64,000 nucleotides of DNA from a bacterium (GCA_030684695.1 JAUXXX010000127.1:8250-72249); one strand, 5' to 3'. Counted from the stretch's first letter, positions 10,466-58,628 are shown. Notes: a model not told the origin generated them from the letters alone. A program made the numbers and translations.

Positions 10466-12905
10466 AGTTCTATTTACGTTTCGTTTTAGTTACCGAAATC
10501 TCACTGTAAGTCTTGCAAGATCCTTGCTCATGATGTTTGCATTATTCGTGGCATCCACGATACTATTGATTGTTACAAATACACATCATGCATTTTATCA
10601 AGTCCATGAGAACCGTGCAATCGAGCAATATGGACCTATTGATATTGTCATCACCTATGATTCTAACTCCACTTCAAGATTAGTCAATCAGCGAATCATT
10701 GCTGAAAAGTACGCAACTTCCGTGGAACAGTATTCGGTGTTTTTTAACTTTTACACCTTAGCCACTTTCAACAATGAAGTGGACTATGTTCAAGTTTTTT
10801 CAAGTAACGATGTGGGATATTATCACTTATTTTCTGCACTTCCTCCCACATTGAGTCCTAGTGAAATGGTGATTACCGACGATTTTGCTATTAGCAACAA
10901 CTTAGTAGTCAATAGCAGCATTGAATTATCGATTTTAGGAGAATCATACGTTTATACCGTGAAAGAGATTGTTCCACAGCGTTATATGTTCTCTGGGAAA
11001 AGCATCTATATCAATAAAAACGATTTATTACATACCTTATTTTCGCTACCTCAGTTAAATAACTTAGGAAATACGTTGTACTTAAATGTACTTCCTCATG
11101 TAAACATTGATGATTTCCTCCATGATTTACAAGCAGAAGCTGCATTTGAATCCTATTACATTTTTCGAAGCGTTGACCCCTTACTTATTTCTCAATCCAC
11201 CAATTATTATGCCTCTGTACTATTTGGCATTGGATTGTTTGGTTTGTTTGCAATTGGGTATGTCATCCATTCTTTGATTCCTCTTTTCAAAAGTGATTAT
11301 CAAGCACAGTTGGGAGTGGTGAAATCGCTTGGTCAAAACATCACATGGATGGTGCCCATTTGGTTGAGTCAGTTTGCAATTTACCTGCTTGTGATTCCTT
11401 TGAGTGTTTATTCAGCCCAAGCGTTTTACCAAGAAAGCGCCAGTAGAGCCGGTGTCTTTAGCGAAATTAATCTACATCCAATCTTATCTGCGATCGCGAT
11501 TGCCATCTTAATTGGTTTTGTTATTCTTGAGTTCTTTACATTGATTCATTCTTTTTCTCGCCATTCAAGTGTTAGTCAATCTTTAGATAAACGTAGAATG
11601 GCAATCAAACCAAGTAAAGTTCAAGGGGTTGTGTTACTAGTTTTCTTGATACTTCTTCACATATTCAATCCGTTTTCTGAAGGTGTTCAGGCACTCTTAC
11701 TCATTGTTGTTTGTATATTGCTTTCCTTATACATCATCGATCATGGTTTCTATTTATGGAATCATTTACTTAAAAAGAAGAAAAACTACTTTCATTTAGT
11801 CAGCTTACCTTTGTTGAAGGAATCTACCGTCTTTCATAATGCAATGAAAGTTACTGTATTATCAATCATCATCATTTTGATTGCTTTAACCACTTCCTTA
11901 ATGATTGATAAGGAAATTGTAACCCTTCAGAATCAGACGAAGGTCGATTATTATTTAAGCAATCTCTTTGATTATTCCCCTTCATTAAAAGAAGAAATTG
12001 CGCTTCACGAAGAAGTAGAACAAATCGATGAAGCTATCATCTTTCGTCATATTGTCATCGATGTTTTGAACAAACCGAAAAAGATGTCATTCATGGTTTC
12101 TACTTCTTTCGATAAACTTCAGACTTACTTTGATTTTACCTATATTGGTAATGTCTCCGAGGCAATGAATGATTCACAAGTACTAGCCGTTCTTTTGCCT
12201 ATTTCTTTAGCGAAAGCCCATCAACTCCAAATTGGTGACTTTCTTGATATCCAATTAGGTGATAAGTTAGGAATAAAAACTTTCATGATGGCTGGATTTA
12301 TTGATACGGACTATGATAATATAATGATAACCAATCTTTTTATCAATGAAGAAAGTAGACTTCTTCAATCAGTAAATGGATTGTTAGTCAATACGATCGA
12401 TGGTGGCACATTTAAACAAGACATGATTCGAACGTACAGCTCACAAATGATGGTTGTGATTGATCTTGAAGAAATGACACAAAGCGTTGCTACTCAAGTA
12501 CGTAGTTTAGTTGATTTTGCGATCAATATTTCAATCATGTTGGTCATTGCTTTTGGAATCGTCATAATGAATAACTCACGGGTGGTCTTTTATCAACTAA
12601 AAAGTGAGTATACGGTATTTTTATCTCTTGGCCTACCTAAAAAACAACTTCTTAAGCACGTGTTTATTGAGTTTGTTATGATGTCGCTGTTGATTGGTAT
12701 TGTTTCTATTTTTATCTTGGTCGTAGCACTACCAAATCTTGGTTCCTTGATGCTATTGGTAGGATTTTACAAAGTAATCACTTTTGAATTTACCCGTAGC
12801 CTTGGATATATCGTACTTGGAATCCTTGTTTTCTTTGCAAGTTATTTTTTGTTTGTTCACCATGTATCCACTTTAAAAATCATCAATGAAATAAAAAAAA
12901 TATAG
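10458..12905 (+). CDS. FtsX-family ABC transporter permease (duplicated, about 10 TM, with large extracytoplasmic domains)
   Basis: 815 aa. Two FtsX-like 4-TM blocks separated by soluble regions. Overlaps the ATPase gene by 8 nt. Confidence 0.8.
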   Translation: MNKVLFTFRFSYRNLTVSLARSLLMMFALFVASTILLIVTNTHHAFYQVHENRAIEQYGPIDIVITYDSNSTSRLVNQRIIAEKYATSVEQYSVFFNFYTLATFNNEVDYVQVFSSNDVGYYHLFSALPPTLSPSEMVITDDFAISNNLVVNSSIELSILGESYVYTVKEIVPQRYMFSGKSIYINKNDLLHTLFSLPQLNNLGNTLYLNVLPHVNIDDFLHDLQAEAAFESYYIFRSVDPLLISQSTNYYASVLFGIGLFGLFAIGYVIHSLIPLFKSDYQAQLGVVKSLGQNITWMVPIWLSQFAIYLLVIPLSVYSAQAFYQESASRAGVFSEINLHPILSAIAIAILIGFVILEFFTLIHSFSRHSSVSQSLDKRRMAIKPSKVQGVVLLVFLILLHIFNPFSEGVQALLLIVVCILLSLYIIDHGFYLWNHLLKKKKNYFHLVSLPLLKESTVFHNAMKVTVLSIIIILIALTTSLMIDKEIVTLQNQTKVDYYLSNLFDYSPSLKEEIALHEEVEQIDEAIIFRHIVIDVLNKPKKMSFMVSTSFDKLQTYFDFTYIGNVSEAMNDSQVLAVLLPISLAKAHQLQIGDFLDIQLGDKLGIKTFMMAGFIDTDYDNIMITNLFINEESRLLQSVNGLLVNTIDGGTFKQDMIRTYSSQMMVVIDLEEMTQSVATQVRSLVDFAINISIMLVIAFGIVIMNNSRVVFYQLKSEYTVFLSLGLPKKQLLKHVFIEFVMMSLLIGIVSIFILVVALPNLGSLMLLVGFYKVITFEFTRSLGYIVLGILVFFASYFLFVHHVSTLKIINEIKKI

Positions 12906-12914
12906 GGGGATTTT

Positions 12915-15080
12915 ATGAAAAAGTTCACATTGCTTTTATTTATGATTCTAACTTTTTTTGGATTGATTGCTTGTCAAACTACTACAAACAACAACCCTAC
13001 CACACTTGCACCAGTTGTTGTGGAAGAACGACTGTCAGCGCCTTCTAATCTTCAGATAACTGGCAAGATATTAACATGGGATGCAGTCTCAAAAGCCACA
13101 GGCTATGAAATCTATCTCAATGATGTGTTGTTAGCAACTAGAACAGGTGCTTCTTACGATTTTACGAGTCAAACCGGTGATCAACTTGTATTCCGTGTGG
13201 TAGCGAAAGGAAACCCAGCGATTCAATTGCTGAATTCCTTGCCTAGTGCATCTGTTGCCTACCTATCAAACTCAGCACAGGAAATTAACGCTTTAATCGC
13301 GTTGTTAACTCCTGATCTTGGTGCGACAAATTCCGAAATATTTGCTCGCGAACTGGTTCGTAAAGGGATGAAAGCTTCCGAATTTGAAGCCGCAAAAGAT
13401 GACATAGAGGCTATGGTTAGTGCAATGAATGACGCCGAGTCATATTCTGATGCTCATGCTGAAATGTCGAAGTTTATCGCTAAAAAACATAATCTTGAAG
13501 CATTCATTAGTGCGTATGCATTGGTGATGGGCGACATGATGTATGACGATGCACTATACTCAAAAATAGTAACTTCGGCTCACGATGAGTTGGTTTTAGC
13601 CATTGTTCGTACACTAGAATACTTCATGGATTTGCAACAAGCTTTTTCACCAGCATTAGTATCGAAAATATCAAATTTGACAACCGATAATCAAAATCCA
13701 ATCACGGCTCAAGAGCTTGATGATTTGACATCTGAAATCGCAACTGTTTTCTTAGAAAACCTTCCAAGTGTCGCTGACATTCAACTATTCTTCTTATTTA
13801 TGTCACGTGCACTTCAATCATTTGAAGGAACAGAAGGATTACAAACAGCCGTATTTAATTATTCGGAGGAAGCTTCTACTGCCATTCGTTTATCCATTGA
13901 ACTTGAGTTAAGATTCATTGCTTCTCTTGACCTTGCGTACTTTACTTCACTCCTTGGTTTCCAAAATGGAGACATGCATGAAGAATTGAAAGCTGTAGAG
14001 ATTTCGATACTTTCGACAATCGCTATGGCAAGATTTAAAGAAAATAACCAAGCTTTGTTTACACAAATTAGAAATGTACTTACTAGTGCTCAAAAAGAAA
14101 ACCTATTCAATCAACTCAAAGTATCGATATCAAGTATATCTGACGAAGAAATCGGTATGGGTGGAATGAATATGATGGGCTTTCTTGCTTCAAGTATCAA
14201 GAACATATCTTATGCTCTTTTGGAATCATTCTTCGGTGTTGGAGATAAAATCTCCGATGCAGTATTAGACTATATTGTGGAAACCAATGGTGAAATACTT
14301 CGAAAACAAATGATTACCCAATTGTATATGTCAAATATGTATGATTATTATTCTAATTATGAAAATCCTGTTACTGGAGTGCCCCACGATAACTATACCG
14401 AGTACCTTCATGCGAGCAAAATCAATTCACTAGAGTTAGCAGGTTGTTATATCGATTTAATGAAGAAAGTACTCGATGCAACGACTGTAGAAGATGTAAA
14501 AACGGTACTTGAGTTCTACATTACGTATATCCCTGCTTCGGTACTAGAGTCAATGTTTGAAATTAATGCAGAATCAGCACAAACACTACACACACTCATT
14601 AAACAAACACTCGATGGTCAAGCTAGCAATCTTCGTAGTTTACTGGTTGATTTGGTCAATTATCTCCAATCAGCGAATTTGATTAACGAAATGAAAGCAG
14701 CCATGAATGCAAGCCATCAATACAATAAAACAAATTATGGCGCTGATTATGAGAACGGTATGTTTAGCTGGGAAGCTTATAAATACGATAAGTATTCGAA
14801 CCAAATCGTTATAGCAAAACATGTGGATACCTTCATGACTTCCGCAAGAAGAGCTACATTGAATCAAGTAATCAATGCTGCGTTTGCAGTCATGAAATCA
14901 CCTACCGGCTTAGCTTCTTTTAATATGACATTACAAGATGTAACGTCTTTAGAAACTGCATACATGGACGCACTTGATTTATTCCTCTCTGAAGCAGCTG
15001 TCATTCGAACATTTACCATCGCTTCACTGACCACTATTCAAAAAGAACGGATTGATCGTTGGGGCTTTGAAATAGAGTAA
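12915..15080 (+). CDS. lipoprotein with an N-terminal FN3 domain and a large alpha-helical domain of unknown function
   Basis: Lipobox LIAC after the signal peptide. FN3-like LSAPSNLQITGKILTWDAVSKATGYEIYLND...VFRVVAKGN. The remaining roughly 600 aa are helical with no recognisable motif. Confidence 0.65.
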   Translation: MKKFTLLLFMILTFFGLIACQTTTNNNPTTLAPVVVEERLSAPSNLQITGKILTWDAVSKATGYEIYLNDVLLATRTGASYDFTSQTGDQLVFRVVAKGNPAIQLLNSLPSASVAYLSNSAQEINALIALLTPDLGATNSEIFARELVRKGMKASEFEAAKDDIEAMVSAMNDAESYSDAHAEMSKFIAKKHNLEAFISAYALVMGDMMYDDALYSKIVTSAHDELVLAIVRTLEYFMDLQQAFSPALVSKISNLTTDNQNPITAQELDDLTSEIATVFLENLPSVADIQLFFLFMSRALQSFEGTEGLQTAVFNYSEEASTAIRLSIELELRFIASLDLAYFTSLLGFQNGDMHEELKAVEISILSTIAMARFKENNQALFTQIRNVLTSAQKENLFNQLKVSISSISDEEIGMGGMNMMGFLASSIKNISYALLESFFGVGDKISDAVLDYIVETNGEILRKQMITQLYMSNMYDYYSNYENPVTGVPHDNYTEYLHASKINSLELAGCYIDLMKKVLDATTVEDVKTVLEFYITYIPASVLESMFEINAESAQTLHTLIKQTLDGQASNLRSLLVDLVNYLQSANLINEMKAAMNASHQYNKTNYGADYENGMFSWEAYKYDKYSNQIVIAKHVDTFMTSARRATLNQVINAAFAVMKSPTGLASFNMTLQDVTSLETAYMDALDLFLSEAAVIRTFTIASLTTIQKERIDRWGFEIE

Positions 15081-25589: not shown

Positions 25590-26699
25590 ATGAAAAAGAT
25601 ATTGTCTATCCTCGCAGTATTCATTTTCGCAGTGGTATTGTTCGCATGTCAAAACGGTGCTAAAACCGAATGGAAAATTGTCATGCTTACCGACGTAGGA
25701 ACCATTACGGATAAGTCATTCAACCAAGGAACATGGGAAGGTGTTAAAGCTTTTGCAGAAGAACATGAAATTAATCACATGTACTTTAGACCAAATGCAG
25801 GAACGAAAGCAGATTACTTAGAAGCTATTGATTTAGTAGTAGCAAATGGAGCAAACGTTATCGTGACTCCTGGATTCTTATTCGAAACTGCAATCTATGA
25901 AGCACAAACAAGATATCCAAATGTATACTTTATCCTTATTGATGGTGTTCCTCAATTAGGGGATTACTCCACTTACGAAACAAAGAGCAATACTGTTAAT
26001 ATCTTATTCCAAGAAGAACAATCTGGTTTCTTAGCAGGATACGCTGCAGTTGCAGATGGTTATACAAAACTTGGATTCATGGGTGGAATGGCTGTCCCAG
26101 CCGTTGTTCGTTTCGGTCTTGGATTCGTTGCTGGAGCATATTATGCGGCTAATGCACTAAGCAAAACCATTACATTCGAAGCTGAAAGATATGAGTATCT
26201 TGGAAACTTCGATGACTTACCAAATCATACTACAAAAGCAAACAGCTGGTATGCAGCTGGTGTTGAAATAATATTCGTCGCTGCTGGTGGAGCAGGAAAC
26301 TCTGTTATGAAAGCTGCTGAAGATTCGTCTACAGTTGCTGTACCAAAAAAAGTAATCGGCGTTGACGTTGACCAATCTGGCGAATCCGCTACCGTCATCT
26401 CTTCTGCAATGAAACAACTAGCTGTTGCTGTTCAACAAGAATTAAAAGCCCTTATCATTGATAATGCCTTCAAAGGCGGACAAACCTTGATTAAAGGTGC
26501 TGTCGAAGGCGGCGTTGGTCTTCCATTAGGAGCTTCCTTCAAGTTCGCAACATTCACTGAATCTCAATACACAACCTTGTTAAATCAAGTGAAAAACGGT
26601 ACTATCGTTGTTCCACAAACCAAAGCTGAGTTGATTACATTCTTAAGTCAACACGCTGGAAACCCATCGATTACACCACTAGTAAATAGAGTTAGCTAA
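25590..26699 (+). CDS. BMP-family (PnrA/Med-like) ABC substrate-binding lipoprotein, probable nucleoside binding
   Basis: Lipobox LFAC. The pattern TDVGTITDKSFNQGTWEG...GFLAGYAA...IGVDVDQS is characteristic of the BMP family. Confidence 0.85.
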   Translation: MKKILSILAVFIFAVVLFACQNGAKTEWKIVMLTDVGTITDKSFNQGTWEGVKAFAEEHEINHMYFRPNAGTKADYLEAIDLVVANGANVIVTPGFLFETAIYEAQTRYPNVYFILIDGVPQLGDYSTYETKSNTVNILFQEEQSGFLAGYAAVADGYTKLGFMGGMAVPAVVRFGLGFVAGAYYAANALSKTITFEAERYEYLGNFDDLPNHTTKANSWYAAGVEIIFVAAGGAGNSVMKAAEDSSTVAVPKKVIGVDVDQSGESATVISSAMKQLAVAVQQELKALIIDNAFKGGQTLIKGAVEGGVGLPLGASFKFATFTESQYTTLLNQVKNGTIVVPQTKAELITFLSQHAGNPSITPLVNRVS

Positions 26700-26721
26700 C
26701 AAAGTTATTTTTTGATGATTT

Positions 26722-26750
26722 GAGGGGTGAGATTCACACCCCTCTTTTTC
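26722..26750 (+). terminator. intra-operon hairpin/terminator after the binding-protein gene
   Basis: GAGGGGTG-7 nt-CACCCCTC followed by T5. Confidence 0.65.
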
Positions 26751-26766
26751 AAACAAGGAGGTAATT

Positions 26767-28323
26767 ATGAATTACGCGATTGAAATGATTAACATCACAA
26801 AAACCTTCGGAACATTGATTGCGAATGATAACATTACTTTTCAGGTTAAGCCAGGTGAAATTCATGCTATTTTAGGGGAGAATGGAGCTGGTAAATCGAC
26901 ACTGATGTCCATTCTGTTTGGTTTATATACTGCAGACTCTGGGACTATTCTAATTAATGGTCAAGAAGTGAAGATTAAAAACCCAAATGATGCAAATCGT
27001 TACAAAATCGGAATGGTCCACCAACATTTTAAATTGGTGGATGTTTTTAGTGTTATTGACAATATTCTTTTGGGTGCAGAAACAACAAAACACGGTTTTA
27101 TGCAAAACGATGTACCTCGAAAAGCCATCGAAGAGTTGTCTATTCGATATGCTCTTAAGGTGGATTTAGACTCTTATATTAAAGATATCAGTGTGGGAAT
27201 GCAACAACGGGTTGAGATTCTCAAAATGTTATATCGAAATGCAGATATCTTAATCTTTGATGAGCCAACAGCTGTTCTTACTCCTCAAGAAATTGAAGGG
27301 TTATTCAAAGTCATTAAGGCATTTGCTGCAGAAGGAAAATCGATTATTATCATTACTCACAAATTAAATGAAATCAAGGCAATCGCTCAACGCTGCACTG
27401 TGTTACGAAAGGGAAAACACGTTGCCACAGTAGACGTATCGAATACATCCGTGGAAAGACTGGCGGAACTAATGGTAGGTCGTGACGTTTCTTTTGAAGT
27501 AGAGAAATCAAAAGCAAATCCCAAAGAAGTTGTCCTTGAAGTAAAAAACCTCAACTTACAAAACAAAGATCGCACGAAAATGATTCTTAAGAATGTTAAC
27601 TTTCAAGTGAAAGCCGGCGAAATTGTTTGTATTGCTGGAATTGAGGGGAATGGACAGACTCAACTGATTAACCTCATTACCGGGCTGGATAAACTGCATG
27701 ACTTGAACTCTCACATAACATTGAACGGCGCGGATATTACAAACGTAAGCATTCGAAAACGATTTGAATTAGGGATGTCACACATTCCTGAAGACCGTCA
27801 AAAATATGGATTAATTCTTGATTACACTCTGAGTGAAAATATGATTTCGAATACCTATTACTTTGATAAGTTTCAAAAAAATGGACTATTGAAGTTTGAA
27901 GCGATTTCTGCGTATACAAATCAGTTGATTGAACAATATGATATCCGAAGTAGTATGGGAGAGTATACAAAAACACGCTCCATGTCAGGTGGTAATCAGC
28001 AAAAAGCAATCATCGCCAGAGAAACTTCGAGGGAGCATCATCTATTGATTGCGGCTCAACCAACTCGCGGACTCGATGTAGGAGCGATTGAATATGTTCA
28101 TAAAACCATCGTTGCTCAACGTGATTTAAACCATGCAATCTTAGTGGTTTCACTTGAACTAGATGAAGTAATGACCATAAGTGATCGTATTCTAGTAATG
28201 TATGAAGGTGAAATTGTGGGCGAATTCGATCCTTTGAAAACAACAGTGGAAGAAATTGGTCTTTATATGTCTGGATCGAAAAGAATGGAGTTGAGTACAG
28301 ATGACATTCCAAGCATTCATTAA
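26767..28323 (+). CDS. ABC transporter ATP-binding protein, duplicated NBD (sugar/nucleoside CUT2 type)
   Basis: NBD1 has GENGAGKST. NBD2 has GIEGNGQTQL, plus MSGGNQQK. 518 aa. Confidence 0.9.
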   Translation: MNYAIEMINITKTFGTLIANDNITFQVKPGEIHAILGENGAGKSTLMSILFGLYTADSGTILINGQEVKIKNPNDANRYKIGMVHQHFKLVDVFSVIDNILLGAETTKHGFMQNDVPRKAIEELSIRYALKVDLDSYIKDISVGMQQRVEILKMLYRNADILIFDEPTAVLTPQEIEGLFKVIKAFAAEGKSIIIITHKLNEIKAIAQRCTVLRKGKHVATVDVSNTSVERLAELMVGRDVSFEVEKSKANPKEVVLEVKNLNLQNKDRTKMILKNVNFQVKAGEIVCIAGIEGNGQTQLINLITGLDKLHDLNSHITLNGADITNVSIRKRFELGMSHIPEDRQKYGLILDYTLSENMISNTYYFDKFQKNGLLKFEAISAYTNQLIEQYDIRSSMGEYTKTRSMSGGNQQKAIIARETSREHHLLIAAQPTRGLDVGAIEYVHKTIVAQRDLNHAILVVSLELDEVMTISDRILVMYEGEIVGEFDPLKTTVEEIGLYMSGSKRMELSTDDIPSIH

Positions 28324-29446
28324 GAAACTTGTAGCTTCTCTTAAAAAAGCAGTCTCATCCTCTGCATTCACGAACACTTTCTTTGCGATATCCAGTGGAG
28401 TTTTGGTTGGTTTTGTGATTATGCTTTTGACAGCAAGTAGTCTTTCAAATGCTGTCAATGGTTTGTTTCGATTACTAACAGGCGGTTTTCAAAGTCCTTC
28501 CATGTTAGGAAATGTATTGTTTAGTGCCGCTCCTCTCATATTGGTGGGTCTATCTGTCGCGTTTGCTTTCAAAACCGGATTGTTTAACATAGGCGCTTCG
28601 GGGCAGTTCATGATTGGTGGTATATTTGCTTTGTATGTCGCTAATTTGGTTTCACTCCCACCTGTGATTCACTTTATCGTAGCTGCGTTAGCAGCGATTG
28701 TAGGTGGTGCAATATGGGGGTTTATACCAGGACTATTAAAAGTAAGATACAACGTAAATGAAGTAATTACCTGTATCATGCTAAACTATGTCGCTGCTTA
28801 TACTTCTGTCATGGCAGTAGAAAATCCGGCTGTATATGATCGTGGAATTACTGCAATCTCGATTGATTATCCTACTGCAGAAATTCCAAGACTTGGTTTA
28901 AACCAACTCTTTCCAGGTTCATACATTGACATGTCTATTTTAATCGCTATCGCGGTGGCGATATTGATATGGTTTATTTTAAAAAAGACCACCCTTGGAT
29001 ATCAATTAAAAGCGGTTGGATTTAGCAAAGATGCATCGAAATATGCAGGGATTCCTGTTTCAAGAAATATGATCCTTTCCATGATGATTGCTGGAGGACT
29101 TGCTGGATTAGCTGCGGCTATGAACTACTTACCTGCAAACCCTGACTATTTTAGATCCTTTTCTCAAATCAATCCCATCGGTTTCGAAGGTATTTCCATA
29201 GCATTAATCGCGCAAAGTCATCCAATTGGCATTATTTTTTCTGGAATATTCATCAGTTTCATCAAGAAAGGTGCTTTATTGATGCAGTTCTTTGGCTTTA
29301 ACAAAGAAATCACTTCGATCATTATGTCTGTAATCATCTATATGATTTCGATTTCTGCATTTGTAGGTCAATTCATCAAGAAAAGAAAACTGATGAAAAA
29401 ACAGAAGTCCAAACTGATAGATCAAAGAGGTGATGCAAATGTATAG
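28301..29446 (+). CDS. ABC transporter permease (BMP/nucleoside system)
   Basis: About 10 TM helices. Overlaps the ATPase gene. GLFNIGASGQFMIGG motif. Confidence 0.85.
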   Translation: MTFQAFIKKLVASLKKAVSSSAFTNTFFAISSGVLVGFVIMLLTASSLSNAVNGLFRLLTGGFQSPSMLGNVLFSAAPLILVGLSVAFAFKTGLFNIGASGQFMIGGIFALYVANLVSLPPVIHFIVAALAAIVGGAIWGFIPGLLKVRYNVNEVITCIMLNYVAAYTSVMAVENPAVYDRGITAISIDYPTAEIPRLGLNQLFPGSYIDMSILIAIAVAILIWFILKKTTLGYQLKAVGFSKDASKYAGIPVSRNMILSMMIAGGLAGLAAAMNYLPANPDYFRSFSQINPIGFEGISIALIAQSHPIGIIFSGIFISFIKKGALLMQFFGFNKEITSIIMSVIIYMISISAFVGQFIKKRKLMKKQKSKLIDQRGDANV

Positions 29447-30428
29447 CAACCTCATTACTTTTTTATCTCTTGTTCTAATTTTAGCGATTCCTTTGATCAT
29501 CACCGCCACAGGTGGACTGTTTACCGAGCGTAGTGGAGTTACCAACATTGCATTGGAAGGAATTATGATTCTAGGTGCATTTACTGCCTTAATCGTGACC
29601 AATCGAATCACTCCTGAATCGGTTGGTGGACCCTTTGTATTGTATTTAATTGGGATGTTCGTTGCAATTGTCACGGGTATTCTTGTGAGTATCTTACACT
29701 CTGTTGCCTCGATAAAAATGAAAGCCGATCAAATCATCAGTGCAACCGCAATTAACACCCTCGCTCCTGCACTTGCCTTATTTCTTACCTATACCTTAAC
29801 ATTAGGCGCACCTAACGATGACAAACTCCCCATTTTTAGTGGATTTAAAATTGCTCAAATACCAATTTTGTCTGATATTCCATTCATTGGCGATTTGTTC
29901 TTTCGAAATTTCTACCCTGCACTTTATTTTGGTATTATCGTTATTATCGCAGCCTATATCATTCTTTATAAGACGAAGTTTGGTTTGCGACTACGATCTT
30001 GTGGAGAAAATCCTCACGCAGCGGACTCTGCTGGAATCAACATTTACAAGATGCGTTACATTGGCGTCTCTATCTCTGGTGGATTGGCTGGATTAGGTGG
30101 ATTCTTCTATATCACTAGTTTCACTACTTCTTACCATGCCAATGTCGCTGGTTATGGATTCTTAGCCATTGCAGTATTGATTTTCGGAAACTGGAAACCA
30201 TTGAATATTGCACTGACTGCATTGTTGTTTTCAACGCTGCTAACATTTGCTCAAGGAATTGCGTTTTTCCCAGAACTAGAAAGACTCGTTACACAAACAC
30301 TAAACATTAATCTAAATCTAATCAGTATGCTTCCTTATTTGGTAACCATCATTGTACTAGTGCTCACTTCGAAAAACTCAAGATCGCCAAAAGCATTGGG
30401 TCAAACCTACGACAAAGGTCAACGTTAA
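29439..30428 (+). CDS. ABC transporter permease (BMP/nucleoside system, second subunit)
   Basis: Polytopic, with a RSGVTNIALEGIM motif. Start probably ATG 29439 (GAGGTG 6 nt upstream); the track start is 29430. Confidence 0.85.
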   Translation: MYSNLITFLSLVLILAIPLIITATGGLFTERSGVTNIALEGIMILGAFTALIVTNRITPESVGGPFVLYLIGMFVAIVTGILVSILHSVASIKMKADQIISATAINTLAPALALFLTYTLTLGAPNDDKLPIFSGFKIAQIPILSDIPFIGDLFFRNFYPALYFGIIVIIAAYIILYKTKFGLRLRSCGENPHAADSAGINIYKMRYIGVSISGGLAGLGGFFYITSFTTSYHANVAGYGFLAIAVLIFGNWKPLNIALTALLFSTLLTFAQGIAFFPELERLVTQTLNINLNLISMLPYLVTIIVLVLTSKNSRSPKALGQTYDKGQR

Positions 30429-51795: not shown

Positions 51796-52098
51796 TCAGG
51801 ATAAACGGTATTCTTCAGGTAAATTTTCCATTTGGTCGAGTAATAACGTTTCTAACTCCTCAAAGATTTCCCGTTTTTGCATCGGGAAACAATCGTCGCA
51901 AAAATTGTCTTTGGGACAGTTTGCACAATACACACTTGTCATGTCCTTGTACTCATTAATGATTGCAAGAGTAGCCTTGATGGTTTGAACTTCGTCCTGC
52001 CGTCGTAAAAAGTAATAAGCTTCGAGGACTTCTTCAATGACCTTATCTCGCAGTTCGTTGATACCACGCATTGCTTTGATTCGATGGCTTGTTTTCAT
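51796..52098 (-). CDS. hypothetical 100-aa protein with a CxxC-x5-CxxC motif
   Basis: GGAGG RBS. The sequence YCANCPKDNFCDDCF is flanked by helical, acidic segments. Has its own terminator. Confidence 0.5.
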   Translation of the reverse strand: MKTSHRIKAMRGINELRDKVIEEVLEAYYFLRRQDEVQTIKATLAIINEYKDMTSVYCANCPKDNFCDDCFPMQKREIFEELETLLLDQMENLPEEYRLS

Positions 52099-52354: not shown

Positions 52355-52388
52355 AGAAAAAACCGCTTGAAACGGCTAATTTCAAGCG
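52355..52388 (-). terminator. terminator at the end of the HMA gene
   Basis: Minus strand: CGCUUGAAA-loop-UUUCAAGCG followed by GUUUUUUC. Confidence 0.65.
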
Positions 52389-52591
52389 AGTTTTTCTATG
52401 GATAGAAGTTTATAACCTTCTACTGCTAATGCGGATGAAATGACATCACTGGAGACAAACCCATCAAATAATACGTAGCATCCTTCCAAGGATACTTCTA
52501 CATTGGTAACTCCATAGATGTTTTTAAAAATATGATTAATATCGCGGGCACACCCTTCGCAGCACATACCATCAATGATTGCTTTTTTCAT
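52382..52591 (-). CDS. copZ: heavy-metal-associated (HMA) domain metallochaperone, CopZ-like
   Basis: 69 aa with an N-terminal GMCCEGC metal-binding loop and a ferredoxin-like length. No P-type ATPase gene adjacent. Confidence 0.75.
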   Translation of the reverse strand: MKKAIIDGMCCEGCARDINHIFKNIYGVTNVEVSLEGCYVLFDGFVSSDVISSALAVEGYKLLSIEKLA

Positions 52592-52662: not shown

Positions 52663-53493
52663 CTAAAATGTAAGATTTTGCGATATTTTTAATCCAAATT
52701 GATTGGCAAAATCAATCGCCATTTCACTGGAAAAATCTGCTATTTCCTGTGGCTGATGAGCATCAGATCCGATAACGATACACACATCTTTGAAATCTTT
52801 TACCACATTCCAAAAATCATATCTTGGATACAAAAAATCCAAACATCCCTCTTTATAGACCGATTGTTTTCTGATTCCTCCTGCATTTATCTCTAAAGCC
52901 ACATTGTTTTTAATTGCTGAGGCAATAATTCGCTTGGTTACCTGCAATGCCACCTCATCAAACTCATATTTCCCCTTATCAGACAAATAACTAGCAAGAA
53001 ACAAATCAGGATGGACAAGCACTTTAAAAAATCCAGTGGCGAGAGCAGCTTCGATAGTGGAAGCATAGTCGAGTGCTCTGGTTTTATCCATTGGTTCGTA
53101 TGTATTATACAAGCCATTTGGAGTGTGAAAATAATGAACCCCTAGCAACAAATAATCGACATCTTGAAGTAATAACTCGTAATACTCATCGTGTCCTTTG
53201 ATGTATTCAATTTCAAGCCCTTTTCGGATTTTTATCAATGAAGAATAGTCTCTTATCGCTTGATTGACATCTGGCAAATAGACTTCTTTAAACATTTGGT
53301 AATCCATTTGTCGTTCCAACCAATTGTTCACATACTCCTGTGCAGTCATGAAACTCCTTGGTATGGGACCATGATCCGACATACCAATCTCTTGTAATCC
53401 TTTTTGAATAGCTACTTTTATATAATCCGCACTCATTCCAGTTGCGTGTCCACACAGTGCCGTATGGGTATGATAATTCGATATAAACTGCAT
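52663..53493 (-). CDS. PHP-family histidinol-phosphatase-like protein (HisJ family)
   Basis: NYHTHTALCGHA, MSDHGP, and GSDAH motifs. Start at ATG 53493 (GAGGTG RBS). Confidence 0.8.
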   Translation of the reverse strand: MQFISNYHTHTALCGHATGMSADYIKVAIQKGLQEIGMSDHGPIPRSFMTAQEYVNNWLERQMDYQMFKEVYLPDVNQAIRDYSSLIKIRKGLEIEYIKGHDEYYELLLQDVDYLLLGVHYFHTPNGLYNTYEPMDKTRALDYASTIEAALATGFFKVLVHPDLFLASYLSDKGKYEFDEVALQVTKRIIASAIKNNVALEINAGGIRKQSVYKEGCLDFLYPRYDFWNVVKDFKDVCIVIGSDAHQPQEIADFSSEMAIDFANQFGLKISQNLTF

Positions 53494-53529
53494 ATTTTTC
53501 ACCTCATGAACATTGTATCATATCCAACT

Positions 53530-53567
53530 CAAAAAAAAGAAAAGTGATGCACAAGGCAGCACTTTTC
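53530..53567 (-). terminator. terminator closing the repeat-peptide/regulator cassette
   Basis: Minus strand: GAAAAGUG-13 nt-CACUUUUC followed by U8. Confidence 0.7.
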
Positions 53568-53616
53568 CCAGGGAAGGGATTGGTCTATGAGGACCCGTTA
53601 GGGAAAATGAGTCAGT

Positions 53617-54912
53617 TTACGCTAAAAATATATCATCTGTGAGCGGAGATTTCGATGTTTTACTAGCCTTCTTGTTGTTCATCTGGGTAAACAGTTGAAT
53701 CGCCAACTCTTGAATGGTTTGACCACGATACTTATATCCTTGAAACTTTGATTCTGCCTCAATGAATCGTTTTTCTATGACATCATGGGGTTGTTTTGTG
53801 AATGCTGCTTCAAAGAATAACACCAATTTAAAATATTCATCGTTGTATTTCTCGTCTTCATGCAATCCTTTTAATGTGTGAACAACTGCGTTCGCAACAT
53901 CAAATTGATTGCTTTGGTAAGCACAATACACCATCATGATGGATTCATAATCATGTCGTTTGATGATTTGATCAATAATCCGTGTGTAATACTTCAATGC
54001 TTCGGTATATTGTTGTTCCATCAAGCAACAGTCTGCGTAGTTAAGGTAAGTGACACGATCAAGCCTTGGAATATCATTGAAGTTTAAATAGATTAAGTTC
54101 TTTTTCAACATCCGTTTTGCTTCGTCCACATTTCCAAGCTTTTTATAAAATGTGGCGATGTTCATCCGGCAAAAGACAGCTTTGGTATAGTTGAGTTGTT
54201 CTTCGAGCTTCGGCAATGCTTTGTTTGCATAAATAAGCGCATTGATGAAGTCACTGATTAGCGAGTAAGCAAATGATACGTGATAATTGGCTGTTGGCTC
54301 TAGTTCTGGATAGTTTGCAGCCAAATAAACCGTCAAGCGAGCATAGTGGATCACTTTTTCTTGATCCTTCATGATGCCTGCATAGGCGGCCATATATTCA
54401 TAATACAAGAATCGATGTTCATTCGATAATTTATCCACAAAGTGTTTTAAGAACTGAATTGCTTCACCGATTTTTGTGTGATTGACTTGATTGGTATAGT
54501 TCACTTCTGTAATGTGGTAGATTAATTGGGCCAGGTGTAAAGGAACTAACAAAATGGAATTTTGATAGTTGTCAAATTGTTGATGCATTTTTAGATAAAA
54601 AACTTCTGCTTCTTTAAATTTGGAGAAGCAAACACAGGTATAAAATTGGCTGAAGTTCTCATCCAAATTGGCAATCACCGATTTTGGTGTAGTGATTGGT
54701 ATGTGTAAGTGGTGAGCCATTTTATCCACAATTTCATCGTACCCTTCAAAGTTCTTCTGCTGGGCACGTCTAAAATTGGACTTTGGAATGGAAGCCTCTT
54801 CGTTAATATCTTTTTGGGTAATTGCATTGACCTTTTTGAGATACTCTACCATAACCAAGACATCTGCTCGGTTTTGGTAATAGAAATTACTAGAGAACTC
54901 ATAGATAGTCAT
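53617..54912 (-). CDS. HTH + TPR-like helical-repeat regulator (RNPP/NprR-like candidate peptide receptor)
   Basis: N-terminal HTH-like ITQKDINEEASIPKSNFRRAQQ. About 350 aa of helical repeats with TPR-like periodicity (IATFYKKLGNVDEAKRMLKKNL; CCLMEQQYTEALKYYTRII). No signal peptide or TM. The family call is an inference from architecture only. Confidence 0.55.
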   Translation of the reverse strand: MTIYEFSSNFYYQNRADVLVMVEYLKKVNAITQKDINEEASIPKSNFRRAQQKNFEGYDEIVDKMAHHLHIPITTPKSVIANLDENFSQFYTCVCFSKFKEAEVFYLKMHQQFDNYQNSILLVPLHLAQLIYHITEVNYTNQVNHTKIGEAIQFLKHFVDKLSNEHRFLYYEYMAAYAGIMKDQEKVIHYARLTVYLAANYPELEPTANYHVSFAYSLISDFINALIYANKALPKLEEQLNYTKAVFCRMNIATFYKKLGNVDEAKRMLKKNLIYLNFNDIPRLDRVTYLNYADCCLMEQQYTEALKYYTRIIDQIIKRHDYESIMMVYCAYQSNQFDVANAVVHTLKGLHEDEKYNDEYFKLVLFFEAAFTKQPHDVIEKRFIEAESKFQGYKYRGQTIQELAIQLFTQMNNKKASKTSKSPLTDDIFLA

Positions 54913-54999
54913 ATTGTATCAACCTTCTTTTATACGTCAGCGGAAAAATCGAAATCCTTTCACCGCTGGCAAAATAAAGAAGGAGTTGTTCCTAATTAT

Positions 55000-55416
55000 T
55001 TAGCAAGAAAATACTGGTTTTGGATATACGATTTCCGGTTCTGGATCGTCAGCTAAAAAACGTGGTGCTGGATAAACGATTTCTGGTTCTGGGTCATCAG
55101 CCAAGAAACGACGGTCTGGATATACGATTTCTGGTTCTGGGTCATCAGCTAAGAAACGACGGTCTGGATATACGATTTCTGGTTCTGGGTCATCAGCCAA
55201 GAAACGACGGTCTGGGTAAACGATTTCTGGTTCTGGATCGTCAGCTAAGAAACGACGGTCTGGATAAACGATTTCTGGTTCTGGATCATCAGCGAGTTGG
55301 ACGGGGTAATAAAACTCATTAGTAGAAATATCAGCTGTTCTTAACACGTTAAACGACACAAACATTGTAACTGCGAACACCATAACAAATAACGACTTCC
55401 ATGCAAACTTTTTCAT
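55000..55416 (-). CDS. secreted tandem-repeat propeptide: Sec signal + 6 x ADDPEPEIVYP
   Basis: AAGGAG RBS 7 nt before ATG 55416. MKKFAWKSLFVMVFAVTMFVSFNVLRTADIS..., then QL-[ADDPEPEIVYPDRRFL]x4-ADDPEPEIVYPAPRFL-ADDPEPEIVYPKPVFSC*. The repeats differ only by synonymous changes. Confidence 0.8.
   Translation of the reverse strand: MKKFAWKSLFVMVFAVTMFVSFNVLRTADISTNEFYYPVQLADDPEPEIVYPDRRFLADDPEPEIVYPDRRFLADDPEPEIVYPDRRFLADDPEPEIVYPDRRFLADDPEPEIVYPAPRFLADDPEPEIVYPKPVFSC
55030..55293 (-). repeat. 48-bp in-frame tandem repeat, 5.5 copies
   Basis: Units start at 55030, 55078, 55126, 55174, 55222 and 55270, each beginning gatttc[tc]ggttctgg on the plus strand. Confidence 0.95.
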
Positions 55417-55560
55417 AAACAATCTCCTTTAGGGCGAATATTTTTGTTTGAACATTGTGTCTCAAACAGGAATAACATGATGTGTTTTGCTTTCTATCAT
55501 CATCTTATCATAGCCCCAAATTATTGTAAATATTTGCATTTTAGGATATTTGTCTTTCAT

Positions 55561-55569
55561 ATTATAACA
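55561..55569 (-). promoter_or_regulatory. extended -10 (TGTTATAAT) candidate promoter of the repeat-peptide gene
   Basis: The minus strand reads TGTTATAAT. It lies about 145 nt upstream of the ATG, downstream of the preceding terminator. Confidence 0.4.
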
Positions 55570-55594
55570 TATTTCAAACTATAATCTATATAAT

Positions 55595-55610
55595 ATTCTA
55601 AAATTAGAAT
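55595..55610. promoter_or_regulatory. inverted repeat ATTCTAA-aa-TTAGAAT, candidate operator/activator site
   Basis: Perfect 7-bp arms, centred about 39 bp upstream of the centre of the candidate -10. Confidence 0.35.
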
Positions 55611-55714
55611 CTTTTTCACTTAAGATTTTTGTAAGGACTTCTTTTTAATGGCCCAATCGCCATAAAAATTAATTTAATAAATTTTCAAAAAGATTCAGAA
55701 AACGGAATATTGAT

Positions 55715-55740
55715 CAAAAAAAGCAACCGAATTCGGTCGC
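55715..55740 (-). terminator. terminator after the acyltransferase gene (upstream boundary of the cassette)
   Basis: Minus strand: GCGACCGAA/UUCGGUUGC followed by U7. Confidence 0.75.
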
Positions 55741-55752
55741 TCTTATGATTTT

Positions 55753-57006
55753 TTATTCTTTTAATGCGAATCTTTCAATCATTTTTTGTTTATACAGTTC
55801 CTCTACAGCAAAATGAAGTTTGGTGACAACATTTTTTTGATGTAAGGGATATAAGTAATACGTATCGTCTAGTGTTGATAAATCAAGACAATCTGTAGTT
55901 CCTAAATAGTCATATTCAATGTGTAGAGAGTACATTGATAATGGGTCTTTACGAAGTTCAAAGGATTCACTGCCAAAGCTTCCGTGCAAATGGAATCCTT
56001 GAAGATCATGACGCAATGTAGCGTTTCCCAAACGAATATATCCTTTGGAGTTGGGTAGAGAATCTACCGCCACTTCATCTTCAAAGAAATATGTTCCGTC
56101 TAAAATTTGTTTTTTGACGTGTTCGCGCTCAAATTCATACCAATCTGGGATATGAGCAAATTCTGTATCCCCAGATTCCGCATGTAGTCTTCCAAGCTCA
56201 TCCATTTCGTAGGTTTTATGACAATGATTGCACCAAAGTTTGGACCCTTTTGAATCCATCTGATGTTCGGTCAAACACGAAGGGCATAAGTATAATACTT
56301 TATGGAGACCTTTCGCACGGTCTTCGTAAGAAATCTTCAGTTTATTTTCAAATTGATACTTGTATTCGTCATAAACAAAAGCATCATTGATCCGTTTGTT
56401 GATTTGTGGAACACTTAATTCAAAAATATCCTCTTTTGTGACGATTTGCGTCATATCTGCAGAAATCCGTACTTTCCGCTTTTTTAGATTCCATACGGGT
56501 TGGCTTAAGTAGTTCCCATGCATGTTGAGTACAACAATCGGGTGCTTCATTAATTTACAAAGTTTACCTAATGAATCTGGCAAAATGGCATTCGTACCAG
56601 CCAATGAATATCTTGCTTCTGGATAAATGGCAATGATGGTTTTGTTGACCTTTAGGGAATGTTCAATTTGACGTATCAAACTAATGTCGTTTGTAAACTT
56701 GCGTTTACACAAACATCCAACATCCCGTAATAGTTTTTCTCTGCCGATGAAACCATCTATAGCCACTATATAGTTAGCTTTATGTGGAAAAATTGCAGCG
56801 GTAGTTACTGAGAAATCAATAAAGGCATGGTGAGTACATAATAATACATATGGTGGTTTTAATCCCTTCATATGATGCTTGCGTACTTTAAGGTGATGTC
56901 CCCATACCGTTGGAAAAGCCAAAAGCCAAGCCAAGATGGTCAAATACCAGGCTTGTTTTTTCGGTTTTTTAAGCATATCAAAACGCGTTTCATGTTGGTC
57001 CTTCAT
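55753..57006 (-). CDS. PlsC-family acyltransferase with zinc ribbon (paralog of 1106-2242)
   Basis: HX4D (CTHHAFIDF), IAIYPEARYS, CPSC...CNHC. AAGGAG RBS. 10-nt gap after the GGDEF gene. Confidence 0.75.
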   Translation of the reverse strand: MKDQHETRFDMLKKPKKQAWYLTILAWLLAFPTVWGHHLKVRKHHMKGLKPPYVLLCTHHAFIDFSVTTAAIFPHKANYIVAIDGFIGREKLLRDVGCLCKRKFTNDISLIRQIEHSLKVNKTIIAIYPEARYSLAGTNAILPDSLGKLCKLMKHPIVVLNMHGNYLSQPVWNLKKRKVRISADMTQIVTKEDIFELSVPQINKRINDAFVYDEYKYQFENKLKISYEDRAKGLHKVLYLCPSCLTEHQMDSKGSKLWCNHCHKTYEMDELGRLHAESGDTEFAHIPDWYEFEREHVKKQILDGTYFFEDEVAVDSLPNSKGYIRLGNATLRHDLQGFHLHGSFGSESFELRKDPLSMYSLHIEYDYLGTTDCLDLSTLDDTYYLYPLHQKNVVTKLHFAVEELYKQKMIERFALKE

Positions 57007-57016
57007 TATTTACTCC

Positions 57017-58573
57017 TTAGTTTTGAATTGATGAAGCAGTCATCACACAATTCTTTCCATTTTTTTTAGCCTGATACATTCCCATATCCGCTTGGTAAAT
57101 ATGGTTCATAATATCTTGGTTTCCATCCACCATTCCATGACTTACTCCAATGGATACCTGAATTTGAATTTTTATTTCCCCATATACAAACCATCTATTT
57201 TCTACAGCTATTCGGGCAATATCAGACAAACGCAGTGCTTCCTCCAAACTTACTTGAGGCAGCAATCCAACAAACTCTTCCCCACCATAACGAGAAAAGA
57301 TAGCATTATCTGGCAGGTTTCGGTAAAGAATATTACTTAGATCCTCTAATAACAAATCCCCCACTAAATGTCCATGGGTATCATTCACAAGTTTAAAGTC
57401 GTCAATATCTATCATCATTACTGCAAATGACTCTTGTGAACGAAATGCAGATTGAAAATACCGATCCACTCTTTCAAAGAACGCTCTTCTGTTCAATAGC
57501 TTTGTTAATGCGTCATGAGAAGCATCAAAATCCAAGCGTTCAATCTTTTCTAGGTAGGCTGTCATATCGTTAAATTTTAGCAAATATCCATTTATCCGTC
57601 CACGCTTTGTTTTTAAATCGACGGTTTCTACGATATAACGTTTCTCTTTGATGAAAAAGGTACTTGTTTGTTTCAAAAAAATCGCGGAATATACTTCGTC
57701 ATCTCGAATGTAGCGTTTAAGTGGCATACGATATAAAAGGGGTCTTGATTGAAGGGATTGGATGGCTTGATTCCATGAAACGATTTCGAATCGATCGTCA
57801 AGAAGCAACATCGGATCTGTCGAATGCTCAAATGTAGCTCGGTGCGCAAGTGGAGCCAAATCAAACACTTCGTAATTGACAGTGGCATATAAAATAATAT
57901 AACCAAGAATCACATACAAATACAAAGAAAGATCGATTCCCAAGGTATGGGTTGTCAGGAATATTGGAATTGTTGCGACAGCTGTTATGGCAGAGCAAAA
58001 CATCATTGCAAACGATTGCTTCTTTTGAATTCCAGAAGATTTGATAAAAATCTTAGCATACATTCCTGTTACAATTAATACAAGTATCACATTATATACT
58101 GCGTTCACAAAATAAAGGAAGCCCTTTTCAATGATTAATATTGCTAATCCAAAATTATCAATCGATAAGGAGTTGTCGATATCAAAGGATTTGTAATACC
58201 AATCCATCGAGGTAAAGTAGCTTAGTTGAGCAGCGAAAAACACAAGCAGCGGGACTACTAAGAATGCATAATGCTTTTTGAGCGAGAAATGATAGCTTGG
58301 TGTTTTAAAACGAATGGCAATGATCAACCAAATTGTTGATAGAAACGGGATGGCTAAATATTGAACTCGATTTGACAGCACTTTAGTAAGTTCCGTTTCA
58401 CTCATTAACTCAAGTGCATAACCAAATGCATAAACAGCTTCTAAGACAAACAAAAGCCCAATTTGAGACAGACCATTTCGACGAGGAATACGTACAAAAA
58501 TAACAATAGCGATGGCCAATGCCACCACAGCCAATGCAATCGTACCTCCAATAAGCAAATAATCTAGCCTCAT
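57017..58573 (-). CDS. membrane-bound diguanylate cyclase (7-TM sensor + PAS-like + GGDEF)
   Basis: Seven N-terminal TM helices. GGDEF domain with LTKLLNRRAF, DIDDFKLVND, and active-site RYGGEEF. No RxxD I-site five residues upstream. Confidence 0.85.
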   Translation of the reverse strand: MRLDYLLIGGTIALAVVALAIAIVIFVRIPRRNGLSQIGLLFVLEAVYAFGYALELMSETELTKVLSNRVQYLAIPFLSTIWLIIAIRFKTPSYHFSLKKHYAFLVVPLLVFFAAQLSYFTSMDWYYKSFDIDNSLSIDNFGLAILIIEKGFLYFVNAVYNVILVLIVTGMYAKIFIKSSGIQKKQSFAMMFCSAITAVATIPIFLTTHTLGIDLSLYLYVILGYIILYATVNYEVFDLAPLAHRATFEHSTDPMLLLDDRFEIVSWNQAIQSLQSRPLLYRMPLKRYIRDDEVYSAIFLKQTSTFFIKEKRYIVETVDLKTKRGRINGYLLKFNDMTAYLEKIERLDFDASHDALTKLLNRRAFFERVDRYFQSAFRSQESFAVMMIDIDDFKLVNDTHGHLVGDLLLEDLSNILYRNLPDNAIFSRYGGEEFVGLLPQVSLEEALRLSDIARIAVENRWFVYGEIKIQIQVSIGVSHGMVDGNQDIMNHIYQADMGMYQAKKNGKNCVMTASSIQN

Positions 58574-58628
58574 GATTTCACCCACTTTTTTTTATTATAT
58601 CACGAGTCATCTTGAAGTATCATAGAGT

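Follow-up and report, generated by a model that had tools for sequence, protein, structure and literature searches.

A candidate RRNPPA-type peptide signalling cassette with a multi-copy precursor in Izemoplasmatales-type bacteria

Reports of RRNPPA-type peptide signalling have so far come from Bacillales, Lactobacillales, Clostridia and mobile elements of these groups. The subject here is a two-gene cassette on the minus strand of a 64,000-nt (64-kb) stretch of bacterial DNA (GCA_030684695.1, JAUXXX010000127.1:8250-72249), called the window below; positions are counted from its first letter. The cassette is a bicistronic unit, in which a gene for a secreted precursor with six copies of an acidic core peptide is followed by a gene for a protein that combines a helix-turn-helix (HTH) domain with tetratricopeptide repeats (TPR). 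It is probably an RRNPPA-type, NprR-like peptide quorum-sensing module with a previously undescribed receptor subfamily in Izemoplasmatales-type bacteria. This reading draws on the co-occurrence of the two genes in both search directions, selection on the core, a Rap/NprR fold, a transitive link to NprR, ordinary single-copy propeptides in distant relatives, and conserved palindromes. The protein of 431 amino acids (aa) has the features expected of an RRNPPA receptor: it is cytoplasmic, lies within the size range of 250-500 aa, contains a TPR-type domain and is similar in fold to solved RNPP receptors (Foldseek). Directly next to it, 87 nt away and in the same orientation, is the expected gene for a small secreted propeptide, and about 25 loci have kept this gene.

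NprR-NprX is one of the described systems that the cassette resembles. Its receptor has about 420-430 aa, with an XRE-type HTH and about nine TPRs, and NprR is among the top fold matches of the window protein (4gpk, 5dbk). The NprX peptide is internal to the C-terminal portion of its Sec-exported propeptide, so that both of its ends require trimming (PMC3763537); the cores in the window are likewise internal. It has been proposed that the NprR tetramer uses two DNA sites (PMC3763537), and here two putative operators lie six helical turns apart. A first-pass annotation of the window had given the NprX sequence as SKPDIVG, which is correct (PMC3763537); the resemblance of its P-[D/E]-I-V stretch to the core, also pointed out there, is a lead only. 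There are clear differences. No direct sequence similarity to NprR is found, so that the cassette does not belong to the NprR subfamily proper. The peptide gene lies upstream of the receptor gene, with which it is apparently co-transcribed, whereas it lies downstream in the Bacillales systems (PMC9765709). The peptide is a strongly acidic 8-10-mer in 1-9 copies, and the host belongs to Izemoplasmatales, not Bacillales.

Rap-Phr systems with tandem pheromones, such as those of phages phi3T and phi105 (PMC11343458, PMC5199041, PMC9765709), also carry several pheromone copies in one Sec-exported propeptide, and there, too, the copies are far more conserved than the intervening regions. Two phage Rap-Phr pairs with this property have been dissected experimentally (PMC11343458). 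The best fold matches of the window receptor are Rap proteins (8rst and related entries). Maturation by extracellular proteolysis counts as a further likeness, although for the present family it is proposed only. In contrast to the window receptor, which aligns to HTH_3 and has putative operators of its own, Rap proteins have an N-terminal three-helix bundle instead of an HTH and act on protein partners. Their propeptides contain 1-4 (PMC11343458) or up to six copies (PMC9765709), with repeats in a minority, while multiple copies are the rule here.

PlcR-PapR and PrgX-cCF10/iCF10 are similar to the proposed form of the present system: in both, an HTH and TPR receptor binds to palindromic boxes, and the peptide gene is autoregulated. 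They differ in that no sequence relation is detectable, that the box ATATTC-N8-GAATAT is specific to the present family, and that PapR and cCF10 are single-copy. In yeast alpha-factor and other eukaryotic polyprotein precursors, one secreted precursor likewise contains several identical signals, and copy number varies between relatives; the comparison has been made for Phr by Even-Tov et al. (PMC5199041). Unlike these, the present spacers have no dibasic or fixed cleavage signal, secretion and processing use unrelated machinery, and the receptor resides in the cytoplasm.

The multi-copy pheromone principle is thus already known: the first reports of pheromone repeats within RRNPPA propeptides concerned Rap-Phr and NprX (PMC5199041), and up to six identical copies have been described (PMC9765709; see also PMC11343458). 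In this respect the first-pass annotation, which knew of no comparable precursor, overstated the novelty. What is new is the receptor subfamily, the host lineage, the core sequence, the upstream position of the peptide gene, multiple copies as the rule (up to nine), and the operator architecture. In the literature searched, no paper was found that joins Mollicutes with RRNPP signalling, and the core peptide motif was found in none.

The N-terminal part of the precursor reads MKKFAWKSLFVMVFAVTMFVSFNVLRTADISTNEFYYPVQL and leads into six identical ADDPEPEIVYP units. More precisely, MKK and a hydrophobic signal are followed by TNEFYYPVQLA, six DDPEPEIVYP cores (aa 43-132) and the tail KPVFSC, with 6-aa linkers between the cores (DRRFLA four times, APRFLA once). 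The segment TNEFYYPVQLA, ahead of the first unit, appears to be the remnant of a seventh one. Tandem Repeats Finder reports a period of 48, 5.7 copies, 91% matches and a score of 432 (55021-55293). Together with the reading of both open reading frames (ORFs), this bears out the gene layout, ribosome-binding site, units, linkers and tail as first annotated. No Pfam or NCBIfam entry matches the precursor. Its Sec-type signal peptide was judged by eye, and the window precursor lacks a canonical AxA at the signal-peptidase site; the first core of at least 10 homologues begins one residue past V-x-A, a signal-peptidase-type site. An ORF of 100 aa that runs antisense to the array, at 55020-55322(+), is a by-product of the periodic sequence, because the pattern of synonymous and non-synonymous changes supports the minus-strand frame only.

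This pattern was obtained by comparing the copies within each gene. Pairwise, the 10-residue core has 1117 synonymous and 98 non-synonymous codon differences, and the linkers have 277 and 321, respectively. With codon variants counted once in 14 genes, core positions 2-9 show 85 synonymous changes and 1 non-synonymous change, versus 64 and 51 in the linkers (Fisher p=2.8e-14). The window gene alone has 5 synonymous and 0 non-synonymous variants in the core, and 2 of each in the linkers. Across 124 units, D2, E4, P5 and Y9 are invariant, and variation is limited to positions 3 (P/D), 6 (E/D), 7 (F/I) and 8 (V/A/M). There is, then, purifying selection on the core of every copy and none on the linkers; since core variation is almost purely synonymous while the linkers vary freely, every copy appears to be selected as a peptide. 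The functional unit suggested by the alignment is an 8-10-mer with the consensus D-[P/D]-E-P-[E/D]-[F/I]-x-Y at positions 2-9, within the length range of RRNPPA pheromones (5-10 residues; PMC11343458).

Linkers differ between genomes in both sequence and length (3-10 aa). In homologues they read KEV, GKVIxL, xxLRGGV, AGGV, AGI or APAFxxL, and DRRFL is unique to the window genome. The RR/FL junctions, initially taken for processing sites, are not conserved in the family and find no support in that role, and a dibasic RR site was rejected for lack of conservation.

The pairing of the two genes was followed in both directions. Close relatives of the receptor are rare, with only 32 among 5.8 billion proteins, either unnamed or called 'TPR repeat protein'. 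All those with taxonomy come from Candidatus Izemoplasmatales, an order placed in Mollicutes by NCBI and related to the mycoplasmas. Starting from the receptor, 12 genome loci were collected in addition to those fetched before; wherever the contig permits, a gene for a signal peptide with 1-9 cores is found directly upstream on the same strand, with the sole exception of locus L013 (see below). Starting from the motif, 13 loci were found on metagenome contigs. The receptor gene lies 58-97 nt downstream in 11 of the 11 whose contig continues, and the other two end inside the repeat gene. Routine occurrence of repeat homologues in the absence of the regulator, which would have spoken against the earlier annotation, is therefore not what the contigs show. 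Altogether, the two-gene arrangement recurs in about 25 independent Izemoplasmatales-type loci, with 1-9 copies. The proposed role of the repeat protein as a multi-copy propeptide is in this way strengthened by selection on the core and by co-occurrence.

Most loci have 4-9 copies, in precursors of 94-190 aa; a single-copy precursor of 55 aa occurs in L011. The core variants are DDPEPEIVYP (six copies in the window, eight in L005), DDPEPEFVYP (5-7), DDPEPDFVYP (6), DDPEPEFVYC (5; L007:3556-3933), DDPEPEFAYP (4-9), DDDEPEFMYP (7) and DDDEPEFMY[C/A/L] (8-9). These variants (IVYP, FVYP, FAYP, DDDEPEFM) follow receptor clades. Copy number can differ between close relatives, as in the otherwise near-identical precursors of L026 and L028 (9 versus 4 copies). 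In some clades, a Cys follows the invariant Tyr in most copies (DDPEPEFVYC in L007; DDDEPEFMYC in L016 and L026), and several precursors have a Cys at the C-terminal end, including KPVFSC in the window.

In more distant receptor clusters (E 1.6e-65 to 5e-11), a small signal-peptide gene is again found directly upstream, but it is single-copy and encodes 46-53 aa. Examples are the propeptides of L030 (...GAKEGPGPDDRPIGWINCINSVEL, 46 aa), L031 (...DSNPDVSLEGCF, 53 aa), L034 (...RERPGPDPPPIVFFTIKNLLSLLF, 48 aa) and L035 (...LGDLGDDPDPIIPLFIIK); the last comes from a spore-former and still resembles the DDPEPEI core (core-like ...GDDPDPIIPLFIIK). Judged by their sequences, these are classic RRNPP-style propeptides. 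Because the distant relatives have single-copy propeptides, the tandem array looks like a within-clade amplification of an ancestrally single-copy peptide. L034 (954-3679) shows a receptor duplication: behind its one propeptide gene (48 aa, ...RPGPDPPPIVFF...) stand two paralogous receptor genes in tandem, for 409 and 392 aa.

Could the repeat protein instead work extracellularly, intact or as large fragments, for instance as an acidic Pro-rich matrix, adhesion or cation-binding protein, with the HTH-TPR protein merely regulating its expression and binding no derived peptide? The lack of a conserved cleavage motif at the unit borders would agree with this, as would the acidic Pro-rich repeats without family assignment and a precursor length that exceeds the 10-100 aa typical of RRNPP propeptides (PMC10075063) in many members. 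A structural repeat is, however, not expected to fix 8 residues while linkers of 3-10 residues vary freely, and the 55-aa single-copy member and the 46-53-aa propeptides of distant relatives are too small for structural proteins. The partner is, moreover, NprR/Rap-like, and such receptors take ligands encoded next door. An intact extracellular protein is accordingly regarded as unlikely, and the precursor is better read as a source of peptides for the adjacent receptor.

Evidence on the receptor comes from profiles, models and one intermediate sequence. Pfam TPR_12 matches above its cut-off (33.9 versus 30.1 bits, E 3.5e-8), while no NCBIfam entry matches. Within the TPR domain, aa 200-272 are the most conserved, with invariant N200, N230, N241 and N272 and the basic residues K231, K235, R249, K257 and K258. 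An AlphaFold2 model built with 30 homologues is all-helical (predicted local distance difference test, pLDDT, 88.1; predicted template modelling score 0.80). When the model is compared with the Protein Data Bank (PDB) by Foldseek, the top 18 matches are all Rap or NprR (E 2.5e-7 to 1.6e-5, target-normalised template modelling score, TM-score, up to 0.68), namely Rap of phage phi3T, RapI, RapF, RapJ, RapH, Rap of pLS20 and NprR, all of them ahead of the generic TPR proteins of eukaryotes. Among viral structures, Foldseek finds only generic TPR proteins, and tblastn against phage genomes gives no match.

On plasmids, the only tblastn match lies on Geobacillus stearothermophilus pBSO1, in a 'helix-turn-helix domain-containing protein' of 406 aa. 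The family profile aligns with this protein over residues 28-316, HTH included (hhalign probability 96.5%, E 9.5e-10), and it in turn matches NprR 4gpk directly (phmmer E 1.4e-9). It carries Pfam HTH_3 at residues 7-59 (E 1.4e-10), to which residues 28-75 of the window receptor align. An exhaustive profile search gave 61 cluster representatives, and HTH_3 is above cut-off at the aligned N-terminus in eight of the full-length ones of about 400 aa that were scanned. The invariant pattern T32-Q33...S45...R49-A50-Q51 fits an XRE-type HTH. Through the pBSO1 protein, the window receptor can be linked to NprR by sequence in a transitive manner. It is thus most likely an NprR-like HTH and TPR protein, of a subfamily without direct sequence match to the founding members. 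The HTH/TPR-like character and the RNPP-type receptor role suggested earlier for the neighbour both gain from these results. The pBSO1 region itself (L036, 894-2271) looks like an unannotated NprR-like cassette, with the HTH_3 and TPR protein followed by a 46-aa secreted-peptide gene (...SVEPITKQSEQDYPNP) that is annotated as hypothetical.

It is also conceivable that released peptides act outside the cell, either as antimicrobial, multi-core products like those of ribosomally synthesised and post-translationally modified peptides (RiPPs), or as ligands of a membrane sensor such as the seven-transmembrane (7TM)-PAS-GGDEF protein encoded nearby, the TPR protein being an unrelated regulator or chaperone. 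Multi-core precursors are typical of some RiPP classes, and the 7TM-GGDEF and acyltransferase-like genes are syntenic with the cassette in most close-family loci. This synteny is lost in distant relatives, however, where the pairing of peptide and receptor persists. The cassette encodes no modifying enzyme, dedicated protease or exporter and is set apart from its neighbours by terminators; export relies on a Sec signal, not a leader peptide; and the receptor has an HTH and is NprR-related. Extracellular action is for these reasons considered very unlikely. Assignment to a multi-core RiPP class was rejected as well, given the Sec-type signal, the presence of only two genes between the terminators, and neighbours (GGDEF, acyltransferase-like, PHP) that are not conserved in distant relatives. 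An intracellular receptor for the peptides remains the preferred reading.

The DNA upstream of the precursor contains palindromic boxes and two predicted promoters, P1 and P2 (Table 1). Twelve upstream regions were aligned, a position weight matrix (PWM) was built from the aligned sites, and 272 kb (the window and the related loci) were scanned with it. Boxes 1 and 2 and both promoters coincide with the invariant columns of the alignment. Counted from its centre, box 1 lies about 48 bp ahead of the start deduced for P1, and box 2 shares sequence with TTTACA, the invariant -35 element of P2. The two boxes are 63 bp apart in the window and 63-64 bp apart in every locus, which corresponds to six helical turns. 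An extra box comparable to box 0 is present in L005, L010/L018 and L022. PWM matches of at least 15 occur almost only upstream of the precursor in the 272 kb, and in the 64-kb window the three sites of Table 1 are the only ones. The bare consensus with up to two mismatches is not enriched in the window (10 found, 8.7 expected in shuffles); the significance of the boxes lies in their clustering and cross-species conservation. A palindrome with two 6-bp half-sites suits an HTH dimer, and by analogy two boxes on the same helix face suggest a dimer of dimers. The boxes can be regarded as putative operators of this receptor. In the distant relatives L030, L031, L034 and L035, nothing matches the family PWM, and only AT-rich palindromes indistinguishable from chance are seen.

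L013 (DILB01000002.1, 'Bacillales bacterium UBA5603') retains its boxes even though the precursor gene is missing: box 1, P1 and a degenerate box 2 directly precede the receptor (L013:3800-4010). This may be an orphan ('eavesdropper') receptor, or else the repeat was lost in assembly; a neighbouring gene for a 99-aa membrane protein looks frameshifted. In the DDDEPEFMY clade only, the acyltransferase-like ORF contains a fourth operator-like box (up to 24.7 bits), some 865 bp upstream of box 1 (L016:2408-2429, L014:2266, L025:1943, L026:1944).

A receptor that acts as Rap proteins do, by binding and inhibiting a protein partner such as a response regulator, with the boxes belonging to another transcription factor, is the least probable alternative: the best Foldseek matches are indeed Rap proteins and the N-terminal domain alone has no significant HTH match, but profile alignment puts a bona fide Pfam HTH_3 on residues 28-75, as in eight further relatives, the invariant T-Q...S...R-A-Q pattern fits an XRE-type HTH, and the boxes accompany the receptor also in the absence of a precursor gene.

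Table 1. Features of the cassette and its flanks in the window; promoters, boxes and domain roles are predicted.
Feature	Coordinates	Strand	Details
Upstream intrinsic terminator	55716..55740	(-)	GCGACCG-AATT-CGGTTGC + T7; fold -17.6 kcal/mol, z=-5.3; ends acyltransferase-like gene; 5' cassette boundary
Box 0 (putative operator)	55690..55711	(-)	third palindromic copy, AATATTCCGTTTTCTGAATCTT; PWM 20.1; 1 mismatch to ATATTC-N8-GAATAT; 98 bp upstream of box 1
Box 1 (putative operator)	55592..55613	(-)	AAGATTC-TAATTTTA-GAATATT; PWM 24.9; TTC...GAAT columns invariant in 12 loci; alignment form AAnnTTC-N8-GAAT
P1 (predicted promoter)	55561..55569	(-)	extended -10 TGtTATAAT; TGnTATAAT positions invariant in 12 loci; no recognisable -35
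Box 2 (putative operator)	55529..55550	(-)	AATATCC-TAAAATGC-AAATATT; PWM 19.8; ATATTTACA columns invariant; alignment form ATATTC-N8-(G/A)AATATT
P2 (predicted promoter)	55502..55530	(-)	sigma-70-type, from promoter scan: TTTACA, 17-nt spacer, TAAGAT preceded by TG; -35 invariant, -10 form TAnnnT
Precursor gene	55000..55416	(-)	138 aa; ATG 55416, stop 55000-55002; ribosome-binding site AAGGAG 55429-55424, 8 nt before ATG
Array of six 48-nt units	55021..55290	(-)	cores and linkers; Tandem Repeats Finder
Intercistronic hairpin	54920..54988	(-)	no T-tract; fold -21.7 kcal/mol, z about -2.6
Receptor/regulator gene	53617..54912	(-)	431 aa; N-terminal HTH and TPR superhelix; starts 87 nt downstream of precursor
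HTH region	54688..54849	(-)	aa about 22-75; helices 33-39 and 44-52; invariant T32 Q33 K34 I36 N37 I42 S45 R49 A50 Q51
TPR domain	53674..54684	(-)	aa about 77-413; proposed peptide-binding module, from alignment, secondary structure and Foldseek
Downstream terminator-like hairpin	53533..53565	(-)	with T8, within 76-nt fold, -18.7 kcal/mol, z=-1.8; weaker of the two; 3' cassette boundary

The flanking terminators of the first-pass annotation are both seen as hairpins with T-runs on folding, and on folding only; a pattern and consensus scan for terminators lists neither. In the spacer between precursor and receptor, a promoter scan finds no promoter of workable geometry. Several other loci (L002, L010, L012, L019 and L020), though not all, have a stable hairpin in the corresponding position. 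Since the spacer lacks a workable promoter and its hairpin lacks a T-tract, co-transcription with partial attenuation is suggested; the hairpin may partially attenuate read-through or stabilise the upstream mRNA. An Rfam scan of 53300-56000 gives nothing credible, and neither the 5' leader nor the intercistronic hairpin matches a known RNA family.

Upstream of the cassette lies a gene for a 417-aa protein with a weak acyltransferase match and a zinc ribbon, at 55753-57006(-), preceded by a 7TM (HisKA_7TM)-PAS-GGDEF diguanylate cyclase gene, at 57017-58585(-), two genes upstream of the cassette. A PHP gene is a further neighbour. In 20 related loci, a gene for a 99-aa membrane protein with three transmembrane segments and no Pfam family is inserted between the acyltransferase-like gene and the precursor (e.g. 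L001:3961-4260); it is absent at 55423-55752 and from the rest of the 64-kb window, and also from L005 and L017. Elsewhere in the window, two adjoining large ORFs of 815 and 721 aa at 10458-15080(+) have no Pfam match at 1e-6. A Cys-rich 100-aa ORF at 51796-52098(-) is likewise without a Pfam match. Next to it is the gene for a 69-aa protein, at 52382-52591(-), which corresponds to an HMA-domain protein in related loci. An ABC operon at 25590-30428 was considered as an oligopeptide permease (Opp) and rejected, as it encodes a Bmp/PnrA-type transporter.

Several observations weigh against the quorum-sensing reading. The correspondence between peptide variants and receptor clades would also arise if neighbouring genes were merely passed on vertically, and copy numbers taken from short-read metagenome assemblies may suffer from repeat collapse. 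The TM-scores are moderate (0.45-0.68), and TPR proteins resemble one another, their architecture being widely shared. Searches of PDB sequences with the receptor sequence and profile return no solved RNPP protein, only TPR matches at chance level, and the N-terminal profile returns nothing. When family members themselves are compared with Pfam, only weak HTH hints appear, so the HTH is unconfirmed in this way. The N-terminal domain folded alone reaches a pLDDT of 75.5, and its best Foldseek match is not significant (E 4.6), although 7 of the 11 weak matches are XRE/Cro-type HTH domains. No conserved cleavage motif flanks the core among the homologues compared. Lastly, the 64 kb of the window were searched for an Opp-type importer, and none was found.

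If the cassette is a quorum-sensing module, it might work as follows. P1 and P2 would drive transcription of the precursor gene and, by way of the intercistronic hairpin, of lower amounts of receptor. The precursor would be exported by Sec, and extracellular peptidases would then trim the variable linkers, so that as many as six peptides with D-P-E-P-E-I-V-Y, each about 8-10 residues long, could come from one precursor. Re-import, presumably by an oligopeptide permease, would allow the peptide to bind the concave face of the TPR domain and alter the oligomeric state or DNA binding of the receptor, which would act through its XRE-type HTH at the ATATTC-N8-GAATAT boxes. The spacing of 63-64 bp would permit a dimer of dimers to bridge two operators, as in PrgX, whose tetramers use two operator sites according to a citation in PMC3763537, and as proposed for NprR. 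The result would be an autoregulatory loop.

For the host lineage, a true module of this kind would extend RRNPPA-type peptide signalling to Izemoplasmatales. With slightly more confidence than doubt, it can be suggested that this is the first peptide quorum sensing described for the Mollicutes-affiliated, wall-less Izemoplasmatales, and that it represents a new RRNPPA subfamily that uses polyprotein pheromones as a rule (1-9 copies, each selected), with copy number as an evolvable gain control and a receptor tetramer that bridges operators six helical turns apart. There is also a lesson for detection. By default, RRNPP_detector accepts propeptides of 10-100 aa and spacers of -50 to 191 bp (PMC10075063), and such length limits would miss families with polyprotein precursors; precursors of 125-190 aa, that of the window with its 138 aa among them, exceed the 100-aa ceiling, which is probably why this receptor family went unnoticed. 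Why pheromones multiply, and how internal copies are excised, have both been flagged as open questions (PMC9765709, PMC11343458). With its series of 1-9 copies, a delimited 8-residue core and a defined putative operator, the family would offer a clean system in which to address them.

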